Below the pieces are notes generated by a model, which was given only the letters and a program-made list of their open reading frames with translations, ran no database searches and was not told the origin of the DNA. From NCBI GenBank assembly GCA_965262915.1, contig OZ253564.1, positions 704,001-768,000 on the forward strand: DNA of 64,000 nt, read 5' to 3'. This DNA comes from Candidatus Spongiisociaceae bacterium. Lineage in GTDB: Bacteria; Actinomycetota; Acidimicrobiia; Spongiisociales; Spongiisociaceae. The position numbers and the translations under genes are program-made. This document shows positions 15,772 through 35,396 of the stretch, piece by piece. The first letter of the stretch is position 1. Every line of letters begins with the position of its first letter.

Positions 15772-15801
15772 AGGTGTCAGGTGTCAGGTGTCAGGTGTCA
15801 G
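15772..15801. repeat. Heptamer array (AGGTGTC)4, continuing after IS110-C at 17287-17293
   Basis: Read directly from the sequence. Confidence 0.9.
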
Positions 15802-17288
15802 ACACCCCAGGCGCGTAAATGTCAAGCTGCGGCTCGGTCGATGGTGGTTCGGTGTGCCCAGGCGGTGTGTTCGTTGTAGGGGGTTTGGTGTTTGAGGCAG
15901 CCGTGGAGGATGCCGACGAGTCGGTTGGCTAGGGCTCGGAGTGCTTGGTGGTGGAGGTCGCCGGCTGCTCGTTTCTGGTCGTAGAAGGCTCGGGCTCCTG
16001 GGCTTGGGGTTAGGGAACAGAACGCCCATTGGTCCAGGGCGTCGTAGAGACGCCGCTTTTCGGACGTGGCGGGCCAGGACAGCACGTTTGCGGCCCGACG
16101 CGATGGTGATGGGCGACGTTCCGGCGTAGTTCCTGGGGGACTTGGCGCTGGTGTAACGGTGGGGGTCGTCCCCGAACTCACCGAGCACCCGGGCGCCGAG
16201 CACGGTACCGAGTCCTGGCTGGGAATGGTAGATGACGGCGTCCGGGTGCTGCTCAAAACGGGTCTGGAGGGTTGCTTCGAGTTGGCTGATCTGGCGGTTG
16301 GCCTCCCCAATGATGCTCACCAGTGCCCCCGACAGTCGCTCCGAAGGCGTCCTCAACCGGCCCCGGTGCGGCGAGGTGAGCAGCTCGGAGGCCTTTCTGT
16401 ATTTTGCGGGCGACCGGATCGAGGTTGCGTTTCCGTCCGCCCCTTTTGAGCGCAGCTCGGATCTGGGGCAGTGTCAGGCGGGCGCCAAGGGCGGGGGTGG
16501 GTGCCCGACCCAGTACGGCCACAGCGTCGGAATGGGCCAGGTCCCCGAACGTTTCCAACGCTGCGGGATAGTACTCGCGCAGGGCGTTGCGGACCCCGTT
16601 GGTGTGACGAGTCCGAGCCCAGATCAGGTTCTGATGCGTTCTGGCCACGATCTTGATACCTTCTGATTCGGGGCTGTCACCGGCCACGGGACGGTGGTTG
16701 TGACGGTCGGTGCGTACCAGATCAGCTAACACCTTGGCATCACCGCGGTCTGATTTCGCTCCGCCCAGGCTGTGACGGTCCCGGTAGCGGGACACCGCCC
16801 TAGGGTTGATCGCATACACCACATAGCCCGCCGCGACCAGCGCACCGACCCACAGCCCACGGTCGGTCTCGATGCCTACCACTACCTCAGCTGCATCCGA
16901 TGTGTGCTCGGCGACCATCTGGTGGAACCTGGCTATACCTTGGATCCCTTCCGGTATACGGGCGAACCCCAGCCGGGTTCCCCCCTCGTCCAGCAGATAC
17001 ACATCGTGGTGGCCCTCAGCCCAGTCGTTACCCACAAAAATCATCTTCGCCTCCCTCGTGCGGATCGATCCTTGCCGAGCTGTAGAGGAAACGCCTGGCG
17101 GCGACCTAGCAGATCAGTGCTCTGTGGCACGCCACCCCCTCAGCGCTACAAGCGGCCCTCGCGAACCGGCCGGGGTACGCTCTGACACTAGGAATCAGCG
17201 TTCCGGGTGCCGTCAGTACTCACCGGCCGGCCAGCTCAACCACCACACCCTCCCAGACAAACCGGCAGAAGTGGTGGACCCCCATTAG
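15800..17288 (-). mobile_element. IS110-C inserted in a heptamer array; CT core; transposase 15822-17044 frameshifted
   Basis: Junctions GTCGACAC[CT]AATGG and GGGGTGT[CT]GACACC; circle junction TTGACA-17 nt-TCTAAT; MIFVGNDWAE, KSDRGDA and AGTSP motifs. Confidence 0.92.
17060..17280 (-). ncRNA. Putative bridge RNA of IS110-C
   Basis: Guides CGGCACC (17206-17212) and GTGTCAG (17182-17188) against target CGACAC[CT]GACAC. Confidence 0.8.
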
Positions 17289-17293
17289 GTGTC

Positions 17294-17406
17294 GACTGGC
17301 GAGACTGAAGGATTCTCGGTGCCGCTTATCTGTGTCGGTCACTCGCCCGTTCCGTTGGTGGCTGCAGAACCCATCATCAAGGACTGACACCTGGCACCTG
17401 GCACCT
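17294..17406. repeat. Conserved ~95-bp core followed by an inverted heptamer array (CTGRCAC)3
   Basis: Near-identical inverted copy at 39955-40046; diverged partial copy at ~19350-19405. Confidence 0.8.
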
Positions 17407-17444
17407 GTTTCGGGTATCGGTCGTGGGTGTGCGCAGTGCTGTGC

Positions 17445-17809
17445 TTAGCGACTGTTCAATCTTTCGCGTAAGGAGCGCTTGAGCCCGTTGAGCATCTTGC
17501 CGGCTTCGCTTGCTCGTCCTTGGACAGGTCTGATCTGTTTCTCTTCTACGATCCCAAGACGCTGCGCTAGGACAAGATAGGTCTCAGTCTCCGCCAACGA
17601 TCCACTGGCTATGCCGAGGAACTGCAGGTACTCCTTCAGGCTGTGGCGGTTGGCACCCTCCGCAATGTTGGCAGCTACCGATGTCGCCGAACGCCGCATC
17701 TGGCTGGTAATCCCGAACCTCTCCTCCCGCGGGACCGGGCGGAGAGCCGGTATGACATCTCAGCCAACTCGACCGACTTCTGCCATACGTCGAGATCGTG
17801 GTAACTCAT
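17445..17809 (-). pseudogene. Four-helix-bundle protein (23S rRNA IVP / Avd-like fold), one frameshift near 17735
   Basis: MSYHDLDVWQKSVELAEMSYRLSAR / PREERFGITSQMRRSATSVAANIAEG..YLQFLGIASGSLAETETYL; adding one base restores the frame. Confidence 0.88.
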
Positions 17810-17913: not shown

Positions 17914-17938
17914 CCTGACACCCAGCACCTGGCACCTA
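17914..17938. repeat. Short degenerate heptamer array overlapping the CoA-transferase stop codon
   Basis: Minus strand reads TAG-GTGCCAG-GTGCTGG-GTGTCAG. Confidence 0.75.
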
Positions 17939-19048
17939 GCGCGGGAGATCGGGAGCCGGTCGGCGGGTGGCGGGGTCGCCGTGAGACGGCAGCTTCACCG
18001 GGTTGCCCGCCATCTCCAGGACCGAGCCGTCCGGTAGCCCCACCCCCACGATCATGTTCCTGGCCCGCACTCCCGGATCGTCCACCACCGCGGCGATGTC
18101 GTTGATCGGCCCGCAAGGTATGCCCGCCTCGACCAGCCGGTCTAGCCAGGCGGCGGCGGTGTCGGTCGAGAGGGCCTCCTCCATCTCGGCGCCCAGCTCC
18201 ACGGCGTGCTCGGTGCGGGCCTCGTTGGTGGCGAACCGGGGATCGCCGGCCAGGTCGGGCCGCCCCAGCGTCTCGCACAGCCCCGTGAACAGGGTGTCGT
18301 TGCCGGCGGCGATCACCAGGGGACGGTCGGAGGCCCGGTAGGCGTCGAAGGGGGTTATCGAAGGGTGGCGGGCGCCCAGCGGGCCCGGAACCAGGCCGGT
18401 GGCCGAGTAGCGGGCGATGGCGTTCTCGAGGATGGCTACCTGGCAGTCGAGCATGGCGATGTCCACCATCTGTCCCAGCCCGGTCCGCTCCCGTTCGTGG
18501 AGAGCCGAGAGGATCCCGACGGCGGCGAACAGGCCGGCGGCGATGTCCCCCACCGAGGTGCCGACCCTCGTGGGAGGGCCCCCCGGATGGCCGGTCAGGC
18601 TCATCAGCCCGCCCATGGCCTGCACCACCATGTCGTAGGCGGGACGTTCGGAATAGGGGCCGGTCCGGCCGAACCCGCTCACCGCCGCGTACACCAGCCT
18701 CGGCCAGCGGGCGTGCAGGACCTCCCATCCGTAGCCCATCCGGTCGAGGGTTCCGGGGCGGAAGTTCTCCACCAGCACGTCGGCCCCGTCGAGGAGCTGC
18801 TCGAACTCCTTGCGGTCATCCGGGACCCCCAGGTCGAGCGCCGTGGCCGACTTGCCCCGGTTGAGCGACTCGAAGTACACGCTGCGACCCCCGTAGAAGG
18901 GCCCGAACCCCCGCGCGTCGTCCCCCCGACCGGGACGCTCCACCTTGATCACCCGCGCCCCGAGGTCGGAGAGCACCATGGTGGCGTACGGACCGGCCAG
19001 CACCCGGCTCAGGTCAACGATCGTTATGTCGGAGAGGGGCCCGTCCAT
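17936..19048 (-). CDS. CaiB/BaiF family III CoA-transferase (intact copy B)
   Basis: MDGPLSDITIVDLSRVLAGPYATMVLSDLGARVIKVERPG..NRGK..ENFRPG..VGDIAAG. Confidence 0.93.
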   Translation of the reverse strand: MDGPLSDITIVDLSRVLAGPYATMVLSDLGARVIKVERPGRGDDARGFGPFYGGRSVYFESLNRGKSATALDLGVPDDRKEFEQLLDGADVLVENFRPGTLDRMGYGWEVLHARWPRLVYAAVSGFGRTGPYSERPAYDMVVQAMGGLMSLTGHPGGPPTRVGTSVGDIAAGLFAAVGILSALHERERTGLGQMVDIAMLDCQVAILENAIARYSATGLVPGPLGARHPSITPFDAYRASDRPLVIAAGNDTLFTGLCETLGRPDLAGDPRFATNEARTEHAVELGAEMEEALSTDTAAAWLDRLVEAGIPCGPINDIAAVVDDPGVRARNMIVGVGLPDGSVLEMAGNPVKLPSHGDPATRRPAPDLPR

Positions 19049-19434: not shown

Positions 19435-19438
19435 CGAT

Positions 19439-19996
19439 CTACCTGCCGGTAGTCACCGACCGCGGGCGGCTGGATGTGGCTTCTATGTAGCCCTCGACTC
19501 TGGAGACGCGTTCTTTGAAGCCGGCTACCTGGTCGCCGACCTCTCTGATGTTGCGGTCGTGGGTGGCGGCGTTGGTGTCGATCTTGTCGCCGATTTCCTT
19601 GAAGTCCTCCCGTGTATCACCGCGGAAGGTCTCGAATCGCTCGCGGTCCCCGGCCGCGGCGGCGGCGATGGTGTCGATCTTGGTCGTGTTGAGTGCGATG
19701 TTGCCGTTGGTCTCGGCGGCGTTGACGGCGATGGCGGTGGTGTTGGCGGCGATGGCAGCGGTGTTGGCGTCGAAGCGGTCCAGTACTTCGGTGCGGAAGT
19801 CCTTTACTTCGGTGCGGAAGTCTTTGAGTTCTTTGCGGTCGTCCTCGCGGTCCTTCCCTACTTGGTTGCTGAATTTCTCGATTGACTCGTCGAGGGTGCG
19901 CCGGAGATTGGCCTGGAGCCGCAGAGCGAGTCCCACGAAGGTGACCAGCATCACCAGCATGGGGATGAGCGCTTCCAGCATCTGGGTGGTGTTCAT
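19439..19996 (-). CDS. Membrane-anchored coiled-coil repeat protein (copy 1)
   Basis: N-terminal TM helix, heptad/11-residue repeats (FRTEV, IDANT/IAANT), C-terminal ERVSRVEGYIE. Confidence 0.8.
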   Translation of the reverse strand: MNTTQMLEALIPMLVMLVTFVGLALRLQANLRRTLDESIEKFSNQVGKDREDDRKELKDFRTEVKDFRTEVLDRFDANTAAIAANTTAIAVNAAETNGNIALNTTKIDTIAAAAAGDRERFETFRGDTREDFKEIGDKIDTNAATHDRNIREVGDQVAGFKERVSRVEGYIEATSSRPRSVTTGR

Positions 19997-20273
19997 GTGT
20001 CCGGACCTTACCTTTCGCCGATGTTGCCCCGGAAGGGGCTGGCCTCGTGTCGCTTCGGGGATGGTTGCCGCGGTGCGGCCAGTACCGATGCCCGGCGGTC
20101 GGAAACCCCGCAGGCATGGCAGTGGTAGGTGGCGTATGTTCGTAGTTGGTAATCTACTACATAGTTGGATGGTCGAGAAGGGGGTTACGAGTTATTCGGT
20201 GGTGTGTCGCAGCACGGGCTCTTGACGGCCTCCTGGTTAGAGGTACCGATAATCTGGTGCCCTCCCGGTCGCC

Positions 20274-20435
20274 ACTGGCACCTGGCACCTGGCACCTGGC
20301 ACCTGGCACCTGGCCACTGGCACCTGGCCTCTGGCACCTGGCCTCTGGCACCTGGCCTCTGGCACCTGGCCTCTGGCACCTGGCCTCTGGCACCTGGCCT
20401 CTGGCACCTGGCACCTGGCACCTGGCACCTGGCAC
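20274..20435. repeat. Long heptamer array (~23 units) with an internal 14-bp higher-order repeat
   Basis: (CTGGCAC)n, then alternating CTGGCAC-CTGGCCT, then (CTGGCAC)n. Confidence 0.95.
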
Positions 20436-20446
20436 TCCGGTCCGAT

Positions 20447-21160
20447 CTACCTGCCGGTGGTCACCGGCTGCGGGCGGCGGCTGGATGTGGCTTCTATGTA
20501 GCCCTCGACTCTGGAGACGCGTTCTTTGAAGCCGGCTACCTGGTCTCCGACCTCTCTGATGTTGCGGTCGTGGGTGGCGGCGTTGGTGCCGATCTTGTCG
20601 CCGAGTTCCTTGAAGTCCTCCCGTGTATCACCGCGGAAGGTCTCGAATCGCTCGCGGTCCCCGGCCGCGGCGGCGGCGATGGCGTCGATCTTGGCGTTGG
20701 TCTCGGCGGCGATGGCGTCGATCTTGGCGTTGGTCTTGGCGGCGTTGGCGTCGATCTTGGTCGTGTTGAGTGCGATGTTGCCGTTGGTCTCGGCGGCGTT
20801 GACGGCGATGGCGGTGGTGTTGGCGGCGATGGCCGCGGTGTTGGCGTCGATCTTGCGGTTGGTGGTCTCGAAGCGGTCCAATACCTCGGTGCGGAAGGCT
20901 TGGAGCTCTCTGCGGTCCTCCTCGCGGTTGGCCTGTGCTTCGGTGAGGTCTTTGTCGCGGTTGGCGCTTACTTCGGTGCGGAAGGCTTGGAGTTCTTCGC
21001 GGTCCTTCTCGCGGCCCTTCCGTACTTCGGTGCGGAATTTGTCGATTGACTCGTCGCCGCTGCGCCTGAGATTGGTCTGGAACCGCAGAGCCAGTCCCAC
21101 GAAGGCGGCCAGCATCACCAGCATGGGGATGAGCACTTCCAGCACCTGGGTGGTGTTCAT
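20447..21160 (-). CDS. Membrane-anchored coiled-coil repeat protein (copy 2, longer)
   Basis: MNTTQVLEVLIP...; both ends and the ~70-bp leader are near-identical to copy 1, with extra repeat modules inside. Confidence 0.8.
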   Translation of the reverse strand: MNTTQVLEVLIPMLVMLAAFVGLALRFQTNLRRSGDESIDKFRTEVRKGREKDREELQAFRTEVSANRDKDLTEAQANREEDRRELQAFRTEVLDRFETTNRKIDANTAAIAANTTAIAVNAAETNGNIALNTTKIDANAAKTNAKIDAIAAETNAKIDAIAAAAAGDRERFETFRGDTREDFKELGDKIGTNAATHDRNIREVGDQVAGFKERVSRVEGYIEATSSRRPQPVTTGR

Positions 21161-21235
21161 GTGTCCGGACCTTACCTTTCGCCGATGTTGCCCCGGAAAG
21201 GGCCATCCTCGTGTCGCTTCGGGGATGGTTGCGCC

Positions 21236-21283
21236 GGCACCTGGCACCTGGCACCTGGCACCTGGCACCTGGCACCTGGCACC
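21236..21283. repeat. Heptamer array (GGCACCT)6-7
   Basis: Read directly from the sequence. Confidence 0.92.
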
Positions 21284-22742: not shown

Positions 22743-25130
22743 ATGCCCCTGATAGCGAGGCAGCGTTCGCGGCTGGCTGTGCTGGCCGTGCTGGCCTTGG
22801 TGGGTTCACTTCTTGCCGTTTCTGCGGTGCCAGTCGCCGCTGAGGACGGGAAGGCGGACAACGAGGCCGTATATTCAGCATGTGCCGGTGCTGCGATGGC
22901 CGATGCCGGATTCACCGATATGGACGGCAGCTTTGCCGAGGCTGCAGCGAATTGCTTGGCCCACTACGGCATCACGACGGGAACCAGCGAGGGTGTATTC
23001 TCGCCGACTGATTCGATCACCCGGTTGCAGATGGCTCTGTTCCTGAGCCGGGCTGCTGGCCCGGCGGGGATCGAGTTGCTGGATCCCGCAAAGGATCAGG
23101 GCTTCGACGACATCGCCGGTTTGGCCGACTTCATTCAGGACGCCATCAACCAGGTGGCCGAGTTGGAGATCATGACGGGGACCGATGGTTCGTTCTCGCC
23201 CATGGCTGACGTGAACCGCGAGGACATGGCGACGTTCTTGGACGCATTCCTTGCCAATGCGATCTTGGGCCCGGGTGCAATCGGCGGTGGCATCAACGAC
23301 GATAAGTACTCAGGGGACAACGCGGACGTTGAGCCCGATGACAAGCAGTTCACCGACATCGATCGGGTACCGAGGGTGGCGTACGAAGCAATCCGCCGCC
23401 TCTATGAGGTTGGCGTGGCGCAGGGTACGACCGATACGACCTTCGGCCCGAGTGAGTTGGTGAACCGTGGGCAGATGGCAGTGTTCATCTCCCGGATGCT
23501 GGCTCACACCAATGCCCGTCCGGCCGGTCTGACTATCCAGGCCGAGGGCGATGCGACCGCGGACTCGGACAGCACCATCGCGGTCCATGTGTCTCTGCGC
23601 GGTGACGATCATCAGCCGGTGGCCGATGCGATCATTGATGCCTTCCGTACCTCCGCTCCGGCAGATGCGTTCAACGACGACGGTACCTGTGACGTGTCTT
23701 CCGACGGTGTCGCGCACGAAGGAGGCACGGACACGTGTCAGATTGACGCGAGCGACGAGATCACCGATCCGGACGGAAACCTGATCATTGATCCGCCAGG
23801 GACCTCCGCCGGTGCCGTGACGCTGTGGGTGTGGACCGGCAAGAGCGGCGACACCTACGACGATGACGAGACCACCAAGGCAACGATCGAACTCTCGTAC
23901 ACCAAGCCTGCCAGCATGGTCAGGGTGACCGACACCATGGACAAGCACGCCGTGGCCTTGAAGTTCGGCGATTCGATTACCTTCACCTTCCAAGTGGTTA
24001 ACGAGGACGGTAACGCGGTAACCGAGAAGGATGTCGCGATCAATGTCGTTTCCATGGAGCGGGCCGCGTCGCCTACGGCCGACACCACCGCGATGGCAAG
24101 GTTGGACATCGCCGACGGCAGCACCGGCTATGTGGCCCCGTTCCGTAGTCTCAACACGGAATACATGACGAACGCGGACGGTCAGGTGGAGGTCACCTTC
24201 GGCATTGATGACCTCCGTCCCATGTCGGGTGACGGAGGTGATCTCGGTCGGCTCGATCTGGATGTGACTCTCGACGCCAGCTCGACGTTGACGCTGAGTG
24301 ACATGACGGAACGCAAGGTCATCGACGACGGCGACGGCGACGTCGCTACCGACCCGGTGATCGAGTGGCGGGATACGCCGTCGGCGCCTACAAGCTTGGC
24401 GCTCGGCCTTCCGCAGAGCTATCACTTGGTGTCTACTGCAGGTAGCGGGGCGAGTAGCTCGGTTACGGCCACCCTCGTCAACCAGTACGGCGATCCGATC
24501 TCACGCGCCAAGGTGCGTTTCTACTCGGATGCCACTGAAACGGTAGGTAGTCCCCCTGTTTCATTGAATACATTGGCGGGAATGGCTGACGGATCAACGG
24601 GTCCGAAGCCTCGTAGCACCAACCGCAACGGTGTGGCCACCCAGTCGTACAGTCGAAGTGCGGCCGGCGTTGATGTAGAGACCATCAACGCTCAGTACGT
24701 CCAGGGTCCTTGCAACGATGAGGATTCCGACTGTCCCGATGGTCTCGCCACGGGTGTGACCGATGTAGCGGATATATCCGCCATGGCGGTTATGCATTAC
24801 TGGGGTGTATCGGCGCCGGCGGGTACACCGACTAACGCTCTGCCCATCGTGGTGAGGGATACCGATAGCAACACCATCGTGTTGTCGAATGGGACAAATA
24901 TCTACATCGTCAGCTACAAGTCGATCGATGCCTTCGAGGTGGTTAACACGGGCACAGCGACGGGCGTCTTGGCTACCGGCACTAGGACCATGGACACGTT
25001 CGTGAGCACTCTCAACGCTCTCAGCACTGCTCAGCTAGCTGAAAGCAGTACCACGTTGAATGTCACGCTGTCGGGCAGTCGCAAGGTACCGGGCAGGTTC
25101 GTCTTGGCCTTCAATATTGACGACACATAA
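22743..25130 (+). CDS. SLH-domain surface protein, candidate major S-layer protein
   Basis: Signal peptide; three SLH repeats (FSPTDSITRLQMA, VNREDMA, VNRGQMA); LAHTNARPAG hinge; Ig-like C-terminal part; strong RBS. Confidence 0.88.
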   Translation: MPLIARQRSRLAVLAVLALVGSLLAVSAVPVAAEDGKADNEAVYSACAGAAMADAGFTDMDGSFAEAAANCLAHYGITTGTSEGVFSPTDSITRLQMALFLSRAAGPAGIELLDPAKDQGFDDIAGLADFIQDAINQVAELEIMTGTDGSFSPMADVNREDMATFLDAFLANAILGPGAIGGGINDDKYSGDNADVEPDDKQFTDIDRVPRVAYEAIRRLYEVGVAQGTTDTTFGPSELVNRGQMAVFISRMLAHTNARPAGLTIQAEGDATADSDSTIAVHVSLRGDDHQPVADAIIDAFRTSAPADAFNDDGTCDVSSDGVAHEGGTDTCQIDASDEITDPDGNLIIDPPGTSAGAVTLWVWTGKSGDTYDDDETTKATIELSYTKPASMVRVTDTMDKHAVALKFGDSITFTFQVVNEDGNAVTEKDVAINVVSMERAASPTADTTAMARLDIADGSTGYVAPFRSLNTEYMTNADGQVEVTFGIDDLRPMSGDGGDLGRLDLDVTLDASSTLTLSDMTERKVIDDGDGDVATDPVIEWRDTPSAPTSLALGLPQSYHLVSTAGSGASSSVTATLVNQYGDPISRAKVRFYSDATETVGSPPVSLNTLAGMADGSTGPKPRSTNRNGVATQSYSRSAAGVDVETINAQYVQGPCNDEDSDCPDGLATGVTDVADISAMAVMHYWGVSAPAGTPTNALPIVVRDTDSNTIVLSNGTNIYIVSYKSIDAFEVVNTGTATGVLATGTRTMDTFVSTLNALSTAQLAESSTTLNVTLSGSRKVPGRFVLAFNIDDT

Positions 25131-25187
25131 CTTGGACTCTGGAGGGCGGGAGTCGCCGTAAGGCACTTGACGCCCGCCAGAACTAGG

Positions 25188-25305: not shown

Positions 25306-27339
25306 ATGTCGCGGCGTTCATCGTTGATCGTGTTGGCTGTGTTGTCCTTGGTGGCCACGCTCCTGGCCGTCTCCGCGGTGCCGGCCGCTGGGGAGGACTA
25401 TCCGGCGACCTACTCGGCCTGTGTGGGCCCGGCCACCGAATCGGCCGGGTTCGAGGACGTACCGGAGGGGAGCGTTTCGGAGGCGGCGATCAACTGCATG
25501 GCGCACTACGGGATCATGCCTGGCGCTTCCGCCAATACTTTCTCACCGACGTTGGGTGTTACCCGCCAGGCGATGGCCCTGTTCCTCATCCGATCGGCGG
25601 GCCCGGCCGGCATCGACATCCCGAAAGCCAGGGACGAGGGATTCAGGGACATCGACGATCTTCCCCGCTCGGTCCGTGACGCCATCAACCAGTTGGTCGC
25701 GCTCGATATCACCAGGGGCACGACGTCCAAGACCTTCTCCCCCGATGATTTGGTGACCCGTCGCCAGATGGTCCAGTTCCTGGCCCGGTTTCTCGATGAG
25801 GCGCCGGTCGGGGAGGGCGGTGTGGATATCGAAGATGTGGACCCCGACGACGACCAGTTCGTCGATATCGACGACCTTCCCCACGGTCCTTACGACGCCA
25901 TCCGCAACCTGTTCGAGATGGGCGTTACCAACGGCACCTCACGAACCAGGTTCTCTCCCGACCGTACGGTGACCAGGGCCCAGATGGCCATGTTCATCTC
26001 CCGGATGCTGGCCCACACCAACGCCCGCCCGGCCGGGGTCACCATGCAGGCGCCCGACACGTCGGTGGCCGCCGGCGACACCGCCGAGGTGGTGATATCG
26101 GTGCGGAACTCCGACTTCGAAGCCGCGCAGGACGTGTTCGTGGATCTATTCCATGCTCCGTCCCGGCGTGTGGCCTTCGACTCCGGCGGACGGTGCTACG
26201 ACGACGTGACCGCCGCAGCCGGAGACCAGCCCTGCGTCATCGACTTTAGCGACACGACCACGGACAGTCTCGGCAACCTGGTCTACGATGTACTCGTCGA
26301 CGCGAGCCTGGTGTTGTGGGTGTGGACCGGGGATCGCAACGACCGGTTTGACGCCGACAGGACCCAGGCCGCGACGTTGGAGTTCAGCGCCGGCAAGGCC
26401 CCCGATAAGTTCAAGATCACCTACGACATACCCGAGGAGGCCATCAAGGTCCCCTTCGGGAGGTCGGTCACCGTCACCTTCCAGTTGGTGGACGAGGACG
26501 ACAACCCGGCGAGCGAGCGGGGCGCGGAGATACGAGTCCGCAGCATCGAGAAGAACGGGGGTAGGGTGGATCGTGACCGCAGCAGGACGCTTACCACCGA
26601 CTCGTCGGGCCAGGCGCAGCTACGCTTCCGCCAGACCGATCCGGACTCGCGCGACGGTGATCCCGACGCCACTCTCGACCTCACCGTGGAGAGAGCCGAC
26701 TACGATTGGGATCCGACGCCGAGGGTGCAGTGGTCCGATGAGGACGAAGAGGCCAGAACCCTGGTCGCCGAGCAATCAGTCGCCTATCACTACGCGTCAA
26801 ACGCGGGCCAGGGCGTCTATCACACGGTGACCGCCACCCTGTACGATCAGTACGGTGATCCGGTGCGATCACGGCAGAAGGTGTCCTTCAAGTCCAACGA
26901 TCCGGCCGGGTTGAGTTCCACGGGCCAGGGCGACGCCCAGAGTGTCTACCGCAAGTCGGTCAGCAGCCGGGGCGTAGCCAGAGTCGGCTACTGGCGTAGA
27001 TCGACCGACACTCTCAGGGAGATCATCGAAATCAGCATGCTGGTGGGCAGTCGCCTGATACAGGTCATTCCCCCCGTCGAGCACTACTGGGTCGGAGACC
27101 CCCGCGTCGGCGAGCCGACAAGGGGTCTGGTGTTGCATCACGACGAGGACCGGAACACGTTGGTCTTCGGTGCCGACGACGACCCCTACGTGATCACCTA
27201 CCACTCGAGCGACCAGTTCATCGGGCCGGACGGCAACGAGGTCTTCTCCACGTTCGCAAAGGAGATCGGTGTGGGTGACAATCTGACGGTTACAGTTGAC
27301 GGCTCGCGTGGGGCCCCCAACCGCTTAGTCCGGGGTTGA
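25306..27339 (+). CDS. SLH-domain surface protein paralog
   Basis: RBS GAAAGGAG and ATG 25306; signal peptide, 3 SLH, LAHTNARPAG, DQYGDPV. Confidence 0.88.
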   Translation: MSRRSSLIVLAVLSLVATLLAVSAVPAAGEDYPATYSACVGPATESAGFEDVPEGSVSEAAINCMAHYGIMPGASANTFSPTLGVTRQAMALFLIRSAGPAGIDIPKARDEGFRDIDDLPRSVRDAINQLVALDITRGTTSKTFSPDDLVTRRQMVQFLARFLDEAPVGEGGVDIEDVDPDDDQFVDIDDLPHGPYDAIRNLFEMGVTNGTSRTRFSPDRTVTRAQMAMFISRMLAHTNARPAGVTMQAPDTSVAAGDTAEVVISVRNSDFEAAQDVFVDLFHAPSRRVAFDSGGRCYDDVTAAAGDQPCVIDFSDTTTDSLGNLVYDVLVDASLVLWVWTGDRNDRFDADRTQAATLEFSAGKAPDKFKITYDIPEEAIKVPFGRSVTVTFQLVDEDDNPASERGAEIRVRSIEKNGGRVDRDRSRTLTTDSSGQAQLRFRQTDPDSRDGDPDATLDLTVERADYDWDPTPRVQWSDEDEEARTLVAEQSVAYHYASNAGQGVYHTVTATLYDQYGDPVRSRQKVSFKSNDPAGLSSTGQGDAQSVYRKSVSSRGVARVGYWRRSTDTLREIIEISMLVGSRLIQVIPPVEHYWVGDPRVGEPTRGLVLHHDEDRNTLVFGADDDPYVITYHSSDQFIGPDGNEVFSTFAKEIGVGDNLTVTVDGSRGAPNRLVRG

Positions 27340-29441
27340 TGTTCGGAGCGGCGAGGCTGGGCCGGGGGTGGGTGGCCCCGGCCCTCGTAGCCCTGGCAGC
27401 TTCATTGCTGATGGGACCAGCGGTTCCGGTGGCCGCCGGAGACGGGCAGGCGGATGCCTTGGCTACGTACTCGGCCTGCCCGGGCGCGGCAACCGGGTCG
27501 GTCGGTTTCGAGGACACGGCGGGCAATTGGGCGGAGGCTGCTATAGACTGCCTTGCCCACTACGGGATCACCGGGGGAGGCAGCTCCGCACGGTTCGATC
27601 CCGATGGCGACGTGACCCGCCGCCAGATGGCCCTCTTCCTGGCTGTTGCGGCGAGACCGGCCGGTATCACGTTACCGCAGCCCGCCCAGCAGGGATTCAC
27701 CGACCTCGGCGGGTTGGACGCCCATACCGTGGTCGCTATCCATCGGCTGGCAGAGTCGGGCATCATGACCGGTACCTCCACGATGACCTTCTCTCCGCAT
27801 GAGCCGGTCACCCGCCGCCAGATGGTTCACTTCCTGACCCGCTTCCTGCAGCTCGCGCCGGTGGGGCAGGGAGGGATCGACATCGACGATGTGGAGTCCG
27901 ACGACACCCGGTTCGAGGATATCGGGGACCTGCCGCGTGACACCTACGACGCCATCCTGGACCTGTTCGAGATGGGGATCGCCCGCGGTACGTCGATGAC
28001 CGGGTTCTCACCCGAGCAGCCGGTCACCCGCGCCCAGATGGCAATGTTCATCACCCGGGCCCTGGCCCACACCAACGCCCGCCCCGCCGGTATCACCATC
28101 CAGACCGGCCCCACCACGGTGCCCGTCGAGGCCATCGCCCCGCTGGCGATATCGGTGCGTGACGGCAACCATCGACCGCTGGTGGATGCCTCGGTCGACC
28201 TGATCCGCGCCTCGTCCTGGAGGGAGGCCTTCGAGAACGACGGAAAGTGCTCCGGCGAAGTGGAGGCGGAGGTCGGCCACCGGCCGTGCAGTATCGACCT
28301 CTCCGACCGGGTCACCGACCGGAACGGGAACCTGGCGCACGACCTGATCGTCTTCGAGGATCTGGTGCTGTGGGCCTGGACAGGAGATCAACATGACCGG
28401 TTCGACCTCGACGAAACCGATGCCGCGACGGTGGAGTTCACCACCATCAAGCCCGCCGCCGCCTTCCTGCTGACCGACGACATGCATCCCGACGCGGTCG
28501 CGGTCCCGTACGGCAGATGGGTGAAGTTCACGTTCGGGCTGGTGGACAACAACGGGCAGCCGGTTGCAGAGCAATGGGTGGCGATCCGGATCCGCGCCGA
28601 CCAGGAGCGGGACGGGATCGTCGAGCGGCGTATCAAGACCTACTACACCGACTCGTCGGGCGAGGTGGAGCTGAGCTACACCATCCGCGACCCCTACGCC
28701 GGCGAGAACGACGTCGACAGTTATCTCGACATCAACGTGCTGGAGTCCTCCGAGTTGGAGGTCACCGACCGGTCGGCCGTCCGGATCCTGAGAGAGGACG
28801 ACCAGGGAGTGGATAACCGGCTGCGGTGGTCGGACGACGCAGAGCAACCCAACGCCCTTGTGCTCGAGTTGCCCGTCGTATATCGCTCCGCCTCGGATAT
28901 CGGCCGGGGCGCTCCGAACACCGTCAGTGCCACGTTGGTGGATCAGTACGGCGATCCGGTACGCGGGGAGCGGATCCACTTCAAGTCGGACGACCCCGAC
29001 GGCCTGTACAAAGACACCGACGATCCCGCTCTGGCCATACGCCGCCACCGCAAGGAGACCGACCATCTGGGTGTTGCTACGGTCAGCTACCACCGGAAGA
29101 ACGACGGCTCGCGGATCGAGACCATCTCGGCGTTTTCCGAGGACGACGAGATACAAGCTCAGGCCGTGAGGCAGTACTGGGTCGAGGAAGCCCCCGAAGA
29201 TGAGCTCCTTCACCTCTACGAGGTGCTGCATCTCGACGAGGAACGGTACACGTTGGTGATCCGGCGCGGTGGCCTTGGTCCGTATACGGTCGCCTTCGAC
29301 TCGAACGACCGGTTCGACGTGGACGGGGACACGGAGAGGTTCGAAGCTTTCAAGAGGAGCCTGGAAGAGGGTGACAAGGTGACCGTCGAGGTCCGATCCC
29401 ACGACCCGGACGCCGTGAACTCCTTCACGAGGTATGAATAG
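27336..29441 (+). CDS. SLH-domain surface protein paralog
   Basis: Same architecture; the start overlaps the upstream stop. Confidence 0.88.
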   Translation: MMFGAARLGRGWVAPALVALAASLLMGPAVPVAAGDGQADALATYSACPGAATGSVGFEDTAGNWAEAAIDCLAHYGITGGGSSARFDPDGDVTRRQMALFLAVAARPAGITLPQPAQQGFTDLGGLDAHTVVAIHRLAESGIMTGTSTMTFSPHEPVTRRQMVHFLTRFLQLAPVGQGGIDIDDVESDDTRFEDIGDLPRDTYDAILDLFEMGIARGTSMTGFSPEQPVTRAQMAMFITRALAHTNARPAGITIQTGPTTVPVEAIAPLAISVRDGNHRPLVDASVDLIRASSWREAFENDGKCSGEVEAEVGHRPCSIDLSDRVTDRNGNLAHDLIVFEDLVLWAWTGDQHDRFDLDETDAATVEFTTIKPAAAFLLTDDMHPDAVAVPYGRWVKFTFGLVDNNGQPVAEQWVAIRIRADQERDGIVERRIKTYYTDSSGEVELSYTIRDPYAGENDVDSYLDINVLESSELEVTDRSAVRILREDDQGVDNRLRWSDDAEQPNALVLELPVVYRSASDIGRGAPNTVSATLVDQYGDPVRGERIHFKSDDPDGLYKDTDDPALAIRRHRKETDHLGVATVSYHRKNDGSRIETISAFSEDDEIQAQAVRQYWVEEAPEDELLHLYEVLHLDEERYTLVIRRGGLGPYTVAFDSNDRFDVDGDTERFEAFKRSLEEGDKVTVEVRSHDPDAVNSFTRYE

Positions 29442-29706
29442 CTCACGATTCTGTTACGAGTTATAGAAGAGGAGAGGGCATCGATGACATCGGGGGGGTG
29501 TCGGCACTTTCGGATCTCGCTTCGTCCGATACCCCCCGACCACTGCTCTCGTCGTTTCCCACCTGTGATATCGACGGCTGATTCGTAACGGCGTTCGGTA
29601 CGCTCCGAAAGCCTCTCGAATCCGGCCACCGGCTACCTGGCCGTTTGGATATGCCGTGTTTGTCACCGTGTGGGGCTTACTATGTCCCCCAGGCAAGCAA
29701 ACAGAA

Positions 29707-31785
29707 ATGGGGCTGGTGTTCCTCGAGGCGAACGTCCGTAGGAAGTGGATCGAGCCGATCCTCGTCGCGGTGGTAGGTTCACTTCTAGCTGTCGCGGCGG
29801 TTCCGGCCGCTGCAGTGGACGGGGTGGTGGACCACCCGGCCGAGTACTCGGCTTGTATCGGTCCGGCGGCGGAGTCTGCGGGGTTTCGGGACATGAAGCG
29901 GAACTTTGCAGAGTCGGCCGCCGACTGCCTCGCCTACTACGGGATAACGAAGGGAACCTCCACCGGGATATTCTCACCCGACGACGTAGTGCCCCGGTGG
30001 CAGATGGCCCTGTTCCTGGTACGGGCGGCCGGCCCGGCGGGAATCGTGGTCCCCAAGGCATCCGATCAGGGATTCACCGACCTCGAGCAGTTGGGACCCA
30101 GCACCCGTGACGCCATCAACCAATTGGCGGCACTGCGCATCATGGAGGGCACGTCGGCTTCGACTTTCGCTCCCTCTGCAATGGTGACCCGCCAGCAGAT
30201 GGCAGCGCTGCTGTCGCGATTCCTGAAGGCCGCACCCACGGGGCCGGGAGGATCGGACATCGATGACGTGAAACCCGATGACAATAACTTCCGTGACCTG
30301 GGCCCTGTCCCGTTCATCACGTCCGAGGATATCCGCCGCCTCTACGAGATGGGTGTGACCGGTGGCACTTCGAGCACTACCTTCTCGCCGGGGGCCCCGG
30401 TGAGTCGGGCTCAGATGGCGGTGTTCATCACCAGGATGCTGGCCCACACCAACGCGCGTCCCGCTGGTCTAACGATCCAGATAGCTGACCAGGACGTGTT
30501 CAAGAATTCCGATATCCGCTTGGCGATCTCGCTTCGCGACTCCGATCGGCGGCCCTTCGAAGGCAGGCTGATCGATATTTTCGACGCCACGGATCCCACC
30601 GAAGCGTTCGACCAGAACGGCGCCTGCACGGATCATGTCACTCCGGCGGTCGGTGGCGATGCCTGCACCATCGACGTGTCGGATATGAGCACCGACAATC
30701 TGGGCAATGTCGTGGTAGATGTGGAGATAGCTAACGTCAAACGGCTACGGATCTGGGTCTGGACAGACGAAAAAGGCGAGGTATTCGACGAGGATAGTGC
30801 GGAACCGCTCGTCCTGGATCTAACGCCCCGTAGTGGGGCTTCTGCCTTGGAGGTCTCCGATGACCTACCGCCCACCGCCAGGAAAGTGGAGTTCGGGGAT
30901 TCGGTCACCTTCACGTTCCGCATGATCGACGACGACGGTGATCCGGTCGCCCGTCAAGGCGTCAGCTTTACCGTCCAGGTTAACGAGTCCCGGGACAACG
31001 GCCGCAGTTTCGAGCGGACGACTATCACCAAGGAAACCGGTCCTTATGGAGGGACGCAGCTCACGTTCCGGTTCACGGATCCGTCTTCGAGCCCGGGTGA
31101 CATCGCCAAACTCGACCTTGATGTCCAGAACAGCGGCGGATTCAAGGTGACTGACAAGACGACCACTCAGATGGTGGACGACGACGGGACCAATGACGAT
31201 AGCTTGCTGGACTGGTCGGACGAGCGAAGGGAGCCCACGACCCTCAAGCTGACTCTTACCAAGGAATTCCGGACTGCTTCCGCGGACGGGGCAGGCGCGG
31301 GCACTACCGTACGGGCCGCACTCACCGATCAGTTCGGGGGCCCGGTGGCCCGCGAACAGATCGTCTTCACCTCCAACGACAGCAACGGAGTTCCCGACGG
31401 AGTCCGACGGACCAGTAACCCACAGGGGGTGGCCACGCTCAACTACCAGCGCGACGATTCAGGGAGGGGGATCGAGACGATAACTGGCAAATTCGGCCGG
31501 CTGGTCGGCACCGCCCGCCAGTACTGGGTGACGCCCATATCCGGCAGTGTCAACGGTTCGGGAAGCGTCCGCGTGGTGAACAGGGACACCAACACGATCG
31601 TCGTGGCCGGACGTAGCGTTGCTGAGATAATCGAGTACGACGACAACGACCGTTACCTGATCGATGACGATCCGGCAACCGTGGGCGTATTCGAAGCGCA
31701 TCTCAGCGTGGGTGACATCCTCACCTATGAGATCACCGACCCGAAAAAGAGCACCGTCAACTCCTTCAGCCTCACTAACCGCTGA
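29707..31785 (+). CDS. SLH-domain surface protein paralog (start uncertain)
   Basis: Signal peptide, 3 SLH, LAHTNARPAG, DQFGGPV. Confidence 0.86.
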   Translation: MGLVFLEANVRRKWIEPILVAVVGSLLAVAAVPAAAVDGVVDHPAEYSACIGPAAESAGFRDMKRNFAESAADCLAYYGITKGTSTGIFSPDDVVPRWQMALFLVRAAGPAGIVVPKASDQGFTDLEQLGPSTRDAINQLAALRIMEGTSASTFAPSAMVTRQQMAALLSRFLKAAPTGPGGSDIDDVKPDDNNFRDLGPVPFITSEDIRRLYEMGVTGGTSSTTFSPGAPVSRAQMAVFITRMLAHTNARPAGLTIQIADQDVFKNSDIRLAISLRDSDRRPFEGRLIDIFDATDPTEAFDQNGACTDHVTPAVGGDACTIDVSDMSTDNLGNVVVDVEIANVKRLRIWVWTDEKGEVFDEDSAEPLVLDLTPRSGASALEVSDDLPPTARKVEFGDSVTFTFRMIDDDGDPVARQGVSFTVQVNESRDNGRSFERTTITKETGPYGGTQLTFRFTDPSSSPGDIAKLDLDVQNSGGFKVTDKTTTQMVDDDGTNDDSLLDWSDERREPTTLKLTLTKEFRTASADGAGAGTTVRAALTDQFGGPVAREQIVFTSNDSNGVPDGVRRTSNPQGVATLNYQRDDSGRGIETITGKFGRLVGTARQYWVTPISGSVNGSGSVRVVNRDTNTIVVAGRSVAEIIEYDDNDRYLIDDDPATVGVFEAHLSVGDILTYEITDPKKSTVNSFSLTNR

Positions 31786-32054
31786 CCCTCCTCGACCACG
31801 AGAATGGACGTGACCACGCCACTCCATTCGCGTACCAAGGAGAAACTGCGGAGGAGGAGCCGCACTTCGTCGGTGTACGAATCAGGATCGAACATGAGCG
31901 ATCTTGCACCGGATGGCATCGAAGAGGGTTCTTCTCGGGACGGGTGGCGGAGCCACGCGCTCGTGGACCTTCCTCGCAGGCGCCGCTCCCGCCGTCCTGC
32001 TGTTTGCGATTCCGGCACGGGAGGACTCGCCTTGTGACTCCCCGACCGTGGTAC

Positions 32055-32236
32055 CCGAAGGCCTCTTCCTTCACAGCAACCGGCTGACGGGTCTCATACC
32101 GGCGGAACTCGGCGAACTCTCCAAGCTCTCCTTCCTGGATCTGGGCGGAAACTCGTTCATGGGATCGATACCACCGCAGTTGGGGAGGCTTCCGAGTTGA
32201 CTTATCTGGTCATCCATGGCACCGACCTGGCGGGCC
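32055..32236 (+). pseudogene. Leucine-rich-repeat gene fragment (plant-type LRR consensus)
   Basis: LFLHSNRLTGLIPAELGELSKLSFLDLGGNSFMGSIPPQLGRLPS, then LTYLVIHGTDLAG after a frameshift. Confidence 0.75.
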
Positions 32237-33766
32237 AACATCGCCAGGATCGAATCCGACGACGACAACTTCCAGGATCTCTACTCGGTGAAAGTCACCA
32301 CCTACCGGGCTATCCGCAAGCTCTACGAGTTGGGGGTGACCACCGGGACCTCGGCCTCCACTTTCTCGCCGGACGGACGGGTGAGCCGGGCCCAGATGGC
32401 GGTATTCATCGCCCGGATGCTGGCTCACACCAACGCCCGCCCGGCCGGCCTCACGGTCCAGATCGCGGGCACCGAGGTTTTCGAGAACTCTGATGTCCGC
32501 CTGTCGGTGACCCTGCGCGACCCGGGCCACCGGCCTTTCGAGGACAGGGAGGTGGACATCTTCACCGCTACCGACCCCGCCAAGGCCTTCGACCAGAACG
32601 GTGTGTGCACGGACCATGTCGCGCCCGCCCTGGGCAGCAGCGCCTGTGCCATCGACGTGTCGGACAAGACCACTGACAGCCTGGGCAACCTGGAGGCCGA
32701 CATCGCGGTGGGGGATGTCGAAGGTCTTCGCATCTGGGTGTGGACGGACGAGAGCGGCAAGCTGTTCGACGAGGACAGTGCGGAACCCGTGGTGGTCGAC
32801 ATCACGACCCGAAGCGGCGCTTCCGCTCTGGAAGTCTCCGATGACCTCCCGCCCACTGCCATGAAGGTGCAGTTCGGGGACTCGGTCACCTTCACCTTCC
32901 GGATGATCGATGACGATGGCGATCCTATAGCCCGCTCGGGTGTCAGCTTCACCGTCCAGGTCCGGGAGTCGCGGGACAACGGGCGCAGTTTCGAGCCGAC
33001 GACCATCAGCAAGCAGACCGGTCCGGACGGCGGGACCCAGCTCACTTTCCGGTTCACGGATCCATCGCCGGATCCGGGCGACATCGCCAAGCTCGATCTC
33101 GACATCCGGAACAGCAGCGGGTTCAAGGTCGAGGATGAAACCACCATCGGGATGGTGGAGGACGACAGGAGCCGTGACGATCCCTTCCTGGACTGGGCGG
33201 ACGGGCGGGCCGAGCCCACGACCCTGGAACTCAGCCTCACCAAGGAGTACCGGACCGCCTCGTCGGACGGCGCCGGTGCGGCTTCCACCGTTAGGGCCGG
33301 TCTCACCGATCAGTACGGTGGTCCGGTAGCCCGAGAGAACATCGTGTTCACATCCAACGACAGGAACGGGGTTCCGAGCGGGGTACGCCGCCTTACCAAC
33401 CGGCAGGGTGTCGCCAGCCTCAACTACCTGCGAGACTTCACCGGAAGGGGTGTAGAGACGATCACCGCCAGGTTCAAGCGCCTCAGCACCACAGCTCGCC
33501 AATACTGGATAGCGCCCATATCCGGCACTGCCGACGGGTCGGGCAGCGTCCGTGTCGTGGACACCGACAACAACACCATCGTCGTGGCCGACGGCAACGA
33601 CGCCTTCCTGATCGAGTACGACGGCAACGATCACTACCAGGTCGACGCCGAACCGGTCACCGTAGCCAACTTCGAAGCAAAACTGACTGTCGGCGACACC
33701 CTCGCCTACGAGATCGTCGGCCCCGGCGAGGCCGCCGTCAACAACTTCAACCTCACCGATCGGTAG
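32237..33766 (+). pseudogene. 5'-truncated SLH protein, close duplicate of 29707-31785
   Basis: Begins just before the third SLH; no signal peptide; long near-identical stretches shared with the upstream paralog. Confidence 0.82.
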
Positions 33767-33798
33767 GCCAGGTGCCAGACACCCCAGGAGCGTAAATG

Positions 33799-35034
33799 TC
33801 AAGCTGCGGCTCGGTCGATGGTGGTTCGGTGTGCCCATGCGGTGTGTTCGTTGTAGGGGGTTTGGTGTTTGAGGCAGCCGTGGAGGATGCCGACGAGTCG
33901 GTTGGCGAGGGCTCGGAGTGCTTGGTGGTGGAGGTCGTCGGCTGCTCGGCGTTTGTCGTAGAAGGCTCGGGCTCCTGGACTGTTCTTTAGGGAACAGAAC
34001 GCCCATTGGTCCAGGGCGTTGGGGAGACGCCGGTTACGGACCTGGCGAGCCAGGACAGCGTGCTTGCGGCCTGACGCCACTGTGATGGGCGACGTGCCGG
34101 CGTAGTTCGTGGGGGACTTGGCGCTGGTGTAACGGTCGGGGTCGTCCCCGAACTCACCGAGCGCCCGGGCGCCGAGCACAGTACCGAGTCCTGGCTGAGA
34201 CAGGTAGATGTCGGCGTCCGGGTGTTCTCTAAAACGGGTCTCGAGGGTTGCTTGGAGGTCTGCGATCTGGCGGTTGGTTTCCACAATGAGTTTCACCAGT
34301 GCCCCAACAGTCGCCCCGAAGGCGTCCGCGACCGGCCCCGGCGCGGTGAGATGGCGGGTACGGAGACCTTTCTGTATGCGGCGGGCAACCTTGTCGAGGT
34401 TGCGTCGCCGTCCGCCCCTCTGTAGCGCTGCTCGGATCTGGGGCAGTGTCAGGCGGGCGCCCAGGATTGGGGTGGGTGCCCGACCGAGTATGGCCACAGC
34501 GTCGCGATGGGCCAGGTCATCGAAGGTTTCCAGCGCTGCGGGATAGTACTCGCGCAGGGCGTTGCGGACTTGGTTGGTGTGACGCGTCCGAGCCCAGATC
34601 AGGTTCTGATGCGTTCTGGCCATGATCTTGATCGCGTCTGATTCGGGGCTGTCACCGGCCACCGAACGATGGTTGTGACGGTCGGTGCGTACCAAATCAG
34701 CTAACACCTTGGCATCACCGCGGTCTGATTTCGCTCCGCCCAGGCTGTGACGGTCCCGGTAGCGGGACACAGCCCTAGGATTGATCGCATACACCAAATA
34801 GCCCGCTGCGATGAGCGCACCCACCCACAGCCCACGATCGGTCTCGATCCCTACCACCACCTCAGCTGCATCCGATGCGTGTTCGGCGACCAACTGGTGG
34901 AAGCGGGCTATACCTTGGATCCCTTCCGGGAGACGGGCGAAACCCAGCCGGGTCCCATCCTCGTCCATCAGATACACATCATGGTGGCCCTCAGCCCAGT
35001 CGTTACCCACAAATATCATCCCTTCCTCCTTCAA
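33799..35034 (-). CDS. IS110 recombinase, open frame
   Basis: GNDWAE, GIETD, KSDRGDA, AGTSPITVASG and ALRALANRL motifs. Confidence 0.93.
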   Translation of the reverse strand: MKEEGMIFVGNDWAEGHHDVYLMDEDGTRLGFARLPEGIQGIARFHQLVAEHASDAAEVVVGIETDRGLWVGALIAAGYLVYAINPRAVSRYRDRHSLGGAKSDRGDAKVLADLVRTDRHNHRSVAGDSPESDAIKIMARTHQNLIWARTRHTNQVRNALREYYPAALETFDDLAHRDAVAILGRAPTPILGARLTLPQIRAALQRGGRRRNLDKVARRIQKGLRTRHLTAPGPVADAFGATVGALVKLIVETNRQIADLQATLETRFREHPDADIYLSQPGLGTVLGARALGEFGDDPDRYTSAKSPTNYAGTSPITVASGRKHAVLARQVRNRRLPNALDQWAFCSLKNSPGARAFYDKRRAADDLHHQALRALANRLVGILHGCLKHQTPYNEHTAWAHRTTIDRAAA

Positions 35035-35039
35035 CGGGG

Positions 35040-35255
35040 ATCGATCCTTGCCGAGCTGTAGAACACGCCTGGCGGCGACCTAATGGATCAGTGCTCTGTG
35101 GCACGCCACCCCATGAGCGCTACAAGCGGCCCTCGCGAACCGGCCGGGGTACGATCTGGCACTAGGAATCAGCGTTCCGGGTGCCACCAGTACTCACCGG
35201 CCAGCCAGCTCAACCACCACACCCTCCCAGACAAACCAGCAGAAGTGGTGGACCC
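35040..35255 (-). ncRNA. Putative bridge RNA of IS110-D
   Basis: Target guides TGGCACC (35180-35186) and GTGCCAG (35156-35162); donor guides TGGGGTG and CCATTAG match the element ends. Confidence 0.85.
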
Positions 35256-35396
35256 CCATTAGGTGTCAGGTGTCGGTTGCCAGGTGTCGGTTGCTGTTGA
35301 CGATCATCAAGTACGGTGGATTTCGCCCCGGATCCCTTGGAACCAACCCTCTAGTATGGAGGTCGTGCTTGTACCTGCGGCAGAAGGGGTGATGGA

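Follow-up and report, generated by a model that had tools for sequence, protein, structure and literature searches.

The bridge-RNA mechanism of IS110-family insertion sequences (IS) was published in 2024 (PMC11208160), and guide-target covariation as well as natural reprogramming of guides have already been reported (PMC11208160, PMC11187229). Here we analyzed two copies of an IS110-family element, referred to as IS110-C and IS110-D (C and D), in a 64,000-nucleotide stretch of the genome of a Candidatus Spongiisociaceae bacterium (GCA_965262915.1, contig OZ253564.1). This stretch, the window, covers positions 704001-768000 of a single-contig genome of 5.06 Mb with 64.4% G+C; coordinates are window positions unless marked as genome positions, both elements lie on the minus strand, and junctions were read on that strand. 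IS621 of Escherichia coli (structures 8wt6-8wt9), as described in PMC11208160, resembles the element here in combining DEDD and serine recombinase features, in a predicted RNA of the left end that comprises a 5' stem-loop and separate loops for target and donor binding, in a left guide of the same sense as the left target and a right guide that is the reverse complement of the right target, and in a CT core, a promoter putatively rebuilt across the junction of right end and left end, and the use of dispersed genomic repeats as targets. Dispersed repeats are a known target habit of the IS110 family (PMC11208160).

The element here, known from sequence alone, departs from IS621 in several respects. 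Both domains of the D protein align to the IS621 transposase 8wt6_A at E 2.7e-7, making it only a distant relative. The right guide reads CT plus five bases, while four non-core bases are described for IS621, and the left guide apparently skips the second core base, contrary to the IS621 account; the target there is a repetitive extragenic palindromic (REP) sequence, while here it is a tandem heptamer microsatellite with mutually complementary guides (PMC11208160). ISPpu9 and ISPpu10 of Pseudomonas putida are likewise multi-copy IS110-family elements that all lie in one dispersed intergenic repeat family, given as REP or a conserved intergenic sequence (PMC12288879; bioRxiv 10.64898/2026.03.19.712850). 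As described there, these are palindromic or structured single sites, in contrast to the direct tandem repeat found here, which offers many registers per locus and is split among sublineages by unit variant. The IS1111 group with seekRNA (PMC11187229) also has an RNA-guided DEDD transposase, and natural guide reprogramming among close relatives was reported there; unlike the element here, its description includes subterminal inverted repeats, a non-coding region downstream of the transposase gene and a reversed guide order. Our data place the non-coding region upstream, with a right end of approximately 20 nt, which is the IS110 type, and the left and right ends (AATGGGGGTC and CCTGGGGTGT) are not inverted repeats as judged by eye, with no repeat search run on the ends. 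The mechanism is the published one, which these elements leave unchanged; the unusual part is the tandem microsatellite target, which would widen known IS110 targets beyond palindromic REP-type repeats. Our literature searches turned up no report of a microsatellite-targeting IS110 element, and the natural-target supplementary tables of PMC11208160 may contain such cases.

We found one IS110-family element in 11 full-length copies and approximately 8 fragments (blastn, whole 5.06-Mb genome), and C and D are two of these 11 copies. Our data indicate that C and D are, with high probability, IS110-group copies that move by bridge-RNA-guided recombination. CT borders both sides of 11/11 full-length copies, and both C and D begin with AATGGGGGTCCACC and finish with CCTGGGGTGT. 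An initial annotation of the window had placed C in CGACAC-CT-GACAC with guides CGGCACC and GTGTCAG, and D in TGACAC-CT-GGCAC with guides TGGCACC and GTGCCAG; reading of the junctions confirmed both placements.

15800..17286, minus: IS110-C, whole element, 1487 bp including one CT core; degenerate copy
17287-17288, minus: CT core of the C left junction, CGACAC-CT-AATGGGGG, from junction reading
17287..17294, minus: C left target, CGACAC plus the CT core, from junction reading
15800-15801, minus: CT core of the C right junction, GGGGTGT-CT-GACACCTGACAC, from junction reading
15774..15801 (genome 719774-719801), minus: C right-flank array of four CTGACAC units, the first CT being the right-junction core
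17205..17212, minus: C left target guide CGGCACCC, CGGCACC(C), on the 5' side of the target-binding loop
17182..17188, minus: C right target guide GTGTCAG (reverse complement CTGACAC), equal to the right flank at 7/7 positions
33777..35260, minus: IS110-D, whole element, 1484 bp including one CT core; intact
35261-35262, minus: CT core of the D left junction, TGACAC-CT-AATGGGGG, from junction reading
33777-33778, minus: CT core of the D right junction, GGGGTGT-CT-GGCACCTGG, from junction reading
35261..35290, minus: D left flank, CT core plus degenerate heptamers (CCGACACCTGGCAACCGACACCTGACAC)
33765..33776, minus: D right flank GGCACCTGGCCT, 10 bp from the stop of the SLH gene at 32216-33766
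35179..35186, minus: D left target guide TGGCACCC, TGGCACC(C)
35156..35162, minus: D right target guide GTGCCAG (reverse complement CTGGCAC), equal to the right flank at 7/7 positions

Of the two sides of the target-binding loop, the 5' one reads like the left flank in the same sense, and the 3' one is the right flank's reverse complement. The guides of C and D differ at two positions (C or T on the left, T or C on the right), and, as had been annotated, these are the two positions at which their flanks differ. The left guide of C agrees with its flank CGACAC+C except for one G opposite a target A/T pair, and the same mismatch is present in D, as the annotation had also noted. C and D are not the close siblings they were taken for, since their identity is 89.5-89.7% and they belong to separate sublineages. 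We see the guide-flank agreement of these two copies again with a third heptamer variant and with two further, unrelated classes of target among the five sublineages into which the 11 copies fall (right guides are given as reverse complements).

E3 and E5 (E5 is D), 99.4% identity: left guide TGGCACC, flank TG(G/A)CAC+C; right guide CTGGCAC, flank CTGGCAC
E4 (C), E6, E7 and E9, 95-98% identity: left guide (C/T)GGCACC, flank (C/T/G)GACAC+C; right guide CTGACAC, flank CTGACAC
E8, single copy: left guide TGGCACC, flank TGACAC+C; right guide CTAGCAC, flank CTAGCAC
E1, E10 and E11, 98.5-99.3% identity: left guide CCAGGCTCCT, flank (C/G)AAGGCTCCT; right guide CTATCAG, flank CTATCA(C/A)
E2, single copy: left guide GAATGCTCCT, flank GGATGCTCCT; right guide CTATGTT, flank CTATGGT

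In 7/7 heptamer-inserted copies, including E8 with its unique CTAGCAC, right guide and right flank of the copy are identical at 7/7 positions, while the right guide of E1, E10 and E11 agrees at 6/7 positions and left guides agree at 4-6 of 6 positions in their own copies. The right guides of the three heptamer sublineages (CTGGCAC, CTGACAC and CTAGCAC) differ by single bases. Free sites for these heptamers number 211, 88 and 7, respectively, and by our arithmetic the chance that seven insertions drawn at random from free sites would all fall in the unit spelled by their guide is approximately 7e-5. The earlier proposal that the guide has been retuned to microsatellite variants gains support from these three sublineages, whose seven full-length insertions all lie in the matching unit. 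They present natural bridge-RNA reprogramming at single-base resolution within one genome.

We examined 91 elements, comprising the 11 copies of this genome and 80 related loci; 61 were parsed with anchored patterns (55 unique, from this genome and other Actinomycetota), and a parsed right flank was available for 43 unique elements. The closest of the 80 related loci are in Acidimicrobiia metagenome-assembled genomes (MAGs), at 79-81% amino-acid identity, followed by Rhodococcus, Nocardia, Mycobacterium and others. Nucleotides 4-10 of the left-guide loop agree with the element's own flank at 0.64-0.98 (55 unique elements), while agreement of the same positions with the flanks of other elements is 0.23-0.35 (0.69 next to the core and 0.98 at the invariant core C); loop nucleotides 1-3 and the last nucleotide are at background level. 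The right guide matches its own flank at 1.0, 0.95, 0.93, 0.88 and 0.74 for positions +1 to +5, versus a background of 0.60-0.30 (43 unique elements). On average, left guides match their own flank at 4.6 of 6 positions versus 2.05 across elements, and right guides at 4.5 of 5 versus 1.98. Covariation of guide and flank over homologous elements with folded left ends, the comparison that the initial annotation had suggested, thus places self-match far above the cross-element background. In the congener copies L092 and L093 the guides match perfectly.

Since the flanks are low-complexity repeats in a GC-rich genome, any short segment may resemble them, and we asked whether guide-flank identity could be a product of chance. 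The heptamer is abundant, with 77 arrays of at least three units and approximately 300 junction-type sites, and the two guide sides are mutually complementary, so one match partly implies the other. Targets that do not resemble repeats nevertheless match equally at the same loop positions (AGGCTC-CT-ATCA, ATGCTC-CT-ATG and CACCCTC-CT-AGCCC), the match is specific to loop nucleotides 4-10 but not 1-3, and agreement holds variant by variant in 7/7 copies. The comparison of self with cross-element matching, in which the latter stays at background, contradicts chance, and we consider its probability negligible.

The guides lie within a predicted left-end RNA fold with covarying stems. The left end of D (35020-35260) provides 241-242 nt of non-coding sequence upstream of the gene, and the right end follows the stop codon with approximately 20 nt. 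We aligned 49 distinct left ends, 9 from this genome and 40 from relatives. They begin with CT-AATGGG and continue through a hairpin that varies, an outer stem with GAG(C/T)AC at its end and an 11-nt loop side; next come an apical hairpin of 4 bp, a loop side of 12 nt that finishes in AG-A-N-CGT and a closing stem; a second unit consists of ATGGG(G/A)TG(G/T)CGTGCC, a hairpin and then GAGCACTGATCCATTAGG. In the supplied structure, 97.5% of 1613 cells are paired and 16/33 pairs have compensatory changes, none of 500 shuffles reaches any of five fold measures, and sliding the partners as a control leaves 29-50% paired. Compensatory changes affect 13/22 pairs in the 5' stem-loop taken together with the two stems of the target-binding loop, while the inner hairpin of the donor loop, GTGC/GCAC, is nearly invariant and apical insertions vary in length. 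A scan of 15000-36000 (E up to 1) placed no Rfam family on the left ends; the only match, Ms_AS-4, is inside the transposase genes.

35214..35251, minus: D bridge-RNA 5' stem-loop, compensatory changes in 3/4 pairs
35139..35205, minus: D target-binding stem-loop, with outer stem, internal loop and apical hairpin GGAA...TTCC
35080..35115, minus: D donor-binding loop core CATGGGGTGGC ... TCCATTAG, matching both D ends
17106..17141, minus: C donor-binding loop core GAGGGGGTGGC ... TCTGCTAG, its 3' side mismatching the C left end

The donor-binding loop corresponds to the ends of the element itself. In D, CATGGGGTGGC agrees with the right end TGGGGTG.C, and the reverse complement of TCCATTAG is CTAATGG, the left end. 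The same holds for D and 7 other copies of this genome, in which TGGGGTG.C agrees with the right end TGGGGTGTC and the reverse complement of CCATTAG is the left end CTAATGG. In relatives the 3' donor guide follows changes of the left end, with CTAATGG to CTAATGA accompanied by CCATTAG to TCATTAG (columns 6/229 and 7/228). C, E1 and E2 share a variant donor loop, GAGGGGGTGGC...TCTGCTAG, and E10 holds only the 5' half of this variant, which suggests gene conversion among copies.

The protein belongs to the IS110 family. The D protein matches Pfam PF01548 (DEDD_Tnp_IS110) over model positions 1-155 of 155 (E 1.8e-34), its C-terminal domain is Pfam PF02371 (Transposase_20; E 1.6e-9), and it scores 183.3 bits on NCBIfam NF033542, 'IS110 family RNA-guided transposase', for which the cut-off is 140. 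In the HMMER alignment to IS621, the first D and the D..D pair are matched and the E is offset by two columns and thus not rigorously placed; an S-G aligns to the S-G of IS621 (YESG), its conserved serine being the putative catalytic residue. The bridge-RNA interpretation of the initial annotation therefore stands on an IS110-family RNA-guided transposase, covarying left-end stems and loop sides that match flanks here and in relatives. This recombinase/RNA pair is a distant Actinomycetota relative of IS621, with its closest relatives in Acidimicrobiia, and may be useful as a system for comparison. In 9 copies the transposase reading frame stays open for at least 426 codons; in E2 and C it is disrupted, and C is a dead, decayed copy.

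33799..35019, minus: D transposase gene, 406 aa from ATG, its TGA stop overlapping the TTGACA box
15822..17044, minus: C transposase pseudogene; tblastn of the D protein spreads over three frames
33797..33802, minus: TTGACA box in the D right end
15820..15825, minus: TTGACA box in the C right end

As a separate observation, Rfam RF02464 (Ms_AS-4, an Actinobacteria small RNA) matches 16141-16222 (+) and 34117-34198 (+) with 88.6 and 87.6 bits (gathering score 50). These matches run antisense to the C-terminal part of both transposase genes, and they could mean that IS110-family genes have an antisense RNA, or could reflect nothing more than conservation of the coding sequence.

When right end and left end are joined, both C and D give TTGACA, 17 nt and then T-CT-AAT, which arises only upon this joining. 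The circularization promoter TTGACA-17-TCTAAT of the initial annotation is thus present in both copies at the level of sequence. Among parsed junctions, 46/46 have TTGACA, 17 or 18 nt and then TCTAAT, the search pattern itself having required TTGACA. A promoter formed in the integrated state from heptamer flank and left end was considered and dropped, as by eye no CTGACA unit lies 16-18 nt from CCTAAT.

These features are consistent with the following mechanism. The element would leave as a circle in which the right end joins the left end, and the joined TTGACA-17 nt-TCTAAT would drive transcription of approximately 200 nt of the left end. [quoted passage not shown] The 5' side of the target loop (TGGCACC) would read, in the same sense, the six bases left of the CT core plus the core C, while the 3' side (GTGYCAG) would be the reverse complement of CT plus five bases to the right, and the donor loop would pair likewise with the element's own joined ends. 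The DEDD/serine recombinase would then swap strands at CT, and the element would land scarlessly. Single-base changes in the right guide have probably split off the sublineages found in the CTGGCAC, CTGACAC or CTAGCAC unit of the heptamer microsatellite, and two other sublineages are aimed at other dispersed repeats. The element may still be active at present.

Several observations weigh against this mechanism or against parts of its support. The transposase gene of C has two +1 frameshifts, near 16330 and 16060. The 3' donor guide of C, E1 and E2 has 3 mismatches to the copy's own left end; in C its reverse complement is CTAGCAG versus the left end CTAATGG. RNAalifold, run on 3 and on 49 sequences, did not return an outer stem for the donor-binding loop, and when restricted to donor-loop columns it yielded no structure. 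In 6/7 heptamer copies, a G stands in the left guide at the position of an A on the target top strand, so that pairing requires G:T; a G facing C or T may let one guide accept both G and A variants of the heptamer. At its final base the left guide agrees with the core T at 0.42 for both self and background, and the second core base seems to go unread on this side. Poor fits are found in 4/55 left guides (at most 2 of 6 positions) and 2/43 right guides (at most 2 of 5), and two congener copies, L094 and L095, have right flanks at odds with the guides they carry. The usual -10 box has A at position 2, which TCTAAT lacks. Lastly, E10 and E11 are inside a duplicated 4-kb segment of 95% identity, so they are not independent insertions and count as one event.

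This duplicated segment raises the question of whether copies and flanks spread jointly, through segmental duplication or through homologous recombination between arrays, such that flanks reflect shared ancestry rather than guided insertion. Arrays could support such recombination, and the right end of E2 looks rearranged. Yet beyond a few heptamers the flank sequence differs at every heptamer-class copy, sublineage members of 95-99% identity occupy unrelated loci, and two empty paralogues of the E10/E11 target, GAAGGCTCCTATCAAGTCAC, are present in the genome. The D locus is also found without its element. Of 24 sequencing runs, all in the form of assembled contigs, three RNA runs contained 0.04-0.08 of the sequence words, a figure that carries no information on expression or habitat. 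We aligned contigs of four metagenome runs (X1-X4) to 33300-35800 and found that one contig each from X1 and X2, which come from different studies, joins 33776 to 35261 and omits exactly 1484 nt. The joint is at the CT core, with 2 ambiguous letters that fit either side, and the sequence beside it comprises 540 nt with 3-4 differences; coverage is low, with depths of 2.0 and 4.1, and the shorter sides of the joints measure 53 and 59 letters. We regard the support for an empty D site as good, if not overwhelming, and since the contigs skip the element at the core, the D locus exists without the element and the D insertion is polymorphic in nature. X3 and X4 are without such a joint, which proves nothing either way. 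Joint spread of copies and flanks is, in our view, very improbable, and guided insertion at the core remains the preferred explanation.

We next considered the targets themselves. Arrays of at least three C(C/T)G(A/G)C(A/G)C units number 77 genome-wide, and 11 of them fall within this window, itself 1.3% of the genome, at 15774, 17384, 19413, 20275, 20401, 21234, 37637, 39933, 40101, 40185 and 45745. The genome holds approximately 300 free heptamer junction-type sites and approximately 60 array clusters without an element, and its heptamer microsatellites include CTGGCAC, CTGACAC, CCGACAC, CCGGCAA, CTGACCA, CCGACCA and CTGGCCC. Rather than forming a pre-existing landing pad, the arrays might have expanded together with the element, for example if insertion and excision or recombination of ends seeded arrays. 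Three-unit CTGRCAC windows number 205 here versus 4, 5 and 8 in 3/7 congeners and 0 in 17 other-genus genomes searched, and copies are often at array edges, as joint expansion would have it. Against this, insertion duplicates CT only, the array clusters without an element are many, and numerous heptamer microsatellites (CCGGCAA, CTGACCA, CCGACCA and CTGGCCC) have no matching guide. The genomes G001 and G002 have arrays with no heptamer-inserted copy among parsed loci, a weak point as G001 is fragmented, and the empty D site in X1 and X2 hints that the array preceded the insertion. Joint expansion in place of a landing pad is accordingly improbable, if somewhat less so than spread with flanks.

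Both C and D are intergenic, which makes a safe-harbor role of the arrays for IS copies plausible; effects of the insertions on downstream genes are equally possible. C has a coenzyme A (CoA)-transferase gene on one side and, on the other, a thioesterase gene whose ATG is 40 bp downstream. For D, the distances are 10 bp from the preceding SLH/Big_1 gene and 136 bp to the start of an SLH-RCC1 gene downstream.

A broader reading would combine a microsatellite split among sublineages by single-base guide changes, expansion of element and arrays together, and a self-masked target loop; we offer it tentatively and regard it as rather doubtful. Within it, the CTGGCAC, CTGACAC and CTAGCAC guides and the right-guide word CTAGCTC carried by a congener suggest a possible stepwise path from a REP-like ancestral target, CTAGCCC. 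The target is a direct repeat of period 7 whose two halves share one word, from which mutual complementarity of the left and right target guides follows. In the minimum-energy fold of D the target loop is closed by six pairs, keeping it open costs 13.5 kcal/mol, and the loop-closing value of -13.5 kcal/mol is the largest of 49 family members. The model predicts that the free RNA would zip its own target loop shut and that this mask would be opened by the recombinase or the target. Loop-closing energies are -10.8 to -11.7 kcal/mol for other heptamer copies, -8.1 for C and -9.4 to -11.2 for 8 non-heptamer relatives. We rejected the notion that a self-complementary target loop is a special property of heptamer copies, which are at the top of a continuum and form no separate class.

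Targets other than heptamers are also dispersed repeats. Fragments of other sublineages sit in a near-palindromic repeat, GCACCCTC-CT-AG..., a target shared with the closest MAG copies, and copies of the E2 class are inserted where another dispersed repeat, present at 32 sites genome-wide, begins. The latter starts with ATGCTCCTATGGTTGTCAAATCG, is usually preceded by GGCTC(A/T)TCG and is found in the window at approximately 9844; the terminus of some other mobile element is one candidate for it, a shared 5' region another. In E2 itself (genome 290128-291612, locus L082), the final three bases of the right end are swapped for a second copy of the left-target word ATGCTC, and a solo right-end fragment at genome 4804556-4804822 shows the same form, while the congener copy L093, of the E2 sublineage, has normal ends along with its matching guides. 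In congener G007, three left junctions of this element family (loci L124-L126) are at (A/C/G)AGAC-CT beside heptamer-like sequence, on contigs that end before the guide.

The surroundings of the arrays show further repeats. At C, a repeat of approximately 70 nt (GTCCTTGATGATGGGTTCTG...CGGCACCG plus reverse complement) at 17310-17385 adjoins a heptamer array, and it is also found beside arrays at genome 743933, 1873870, 2278238, 350661 and 86329. At D, at E9 and at three further loci, a second motif, GTACTTGATGATCGTCAACAGCA, stands ahead of the array, and arrays may be part of larger composite repeats. A paralogous CoA-transferase/thioesterase pair at 7654-8458 lies 7.7 kb from the pair at the C locus (15316-15746 and 17936-18235). 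Its spacer is 70 nt long and has neither heptamers nor an IS, so the C locus gained its arrays, the 70-nt repeat and the IS. At 19465-21237, units of approximately 1 kb are tandemly duplicated at 88-97% identity with CTGGCAC arrays at their borders, and their open reading frames have no Pfam match.

C and D flank a tandem cluster of five SLH-domain surface-protein genes (22743-33766), in which one Big_1 match is under the Pfam cut-off and one protein has no match. Beside this cluster, an SLH protein with RCC1 repeats (35397-36857) is coded by 111-nt tandem repeats at 36081-36857, and a second 111-nt array of 12 copies is found at 51042-52562.

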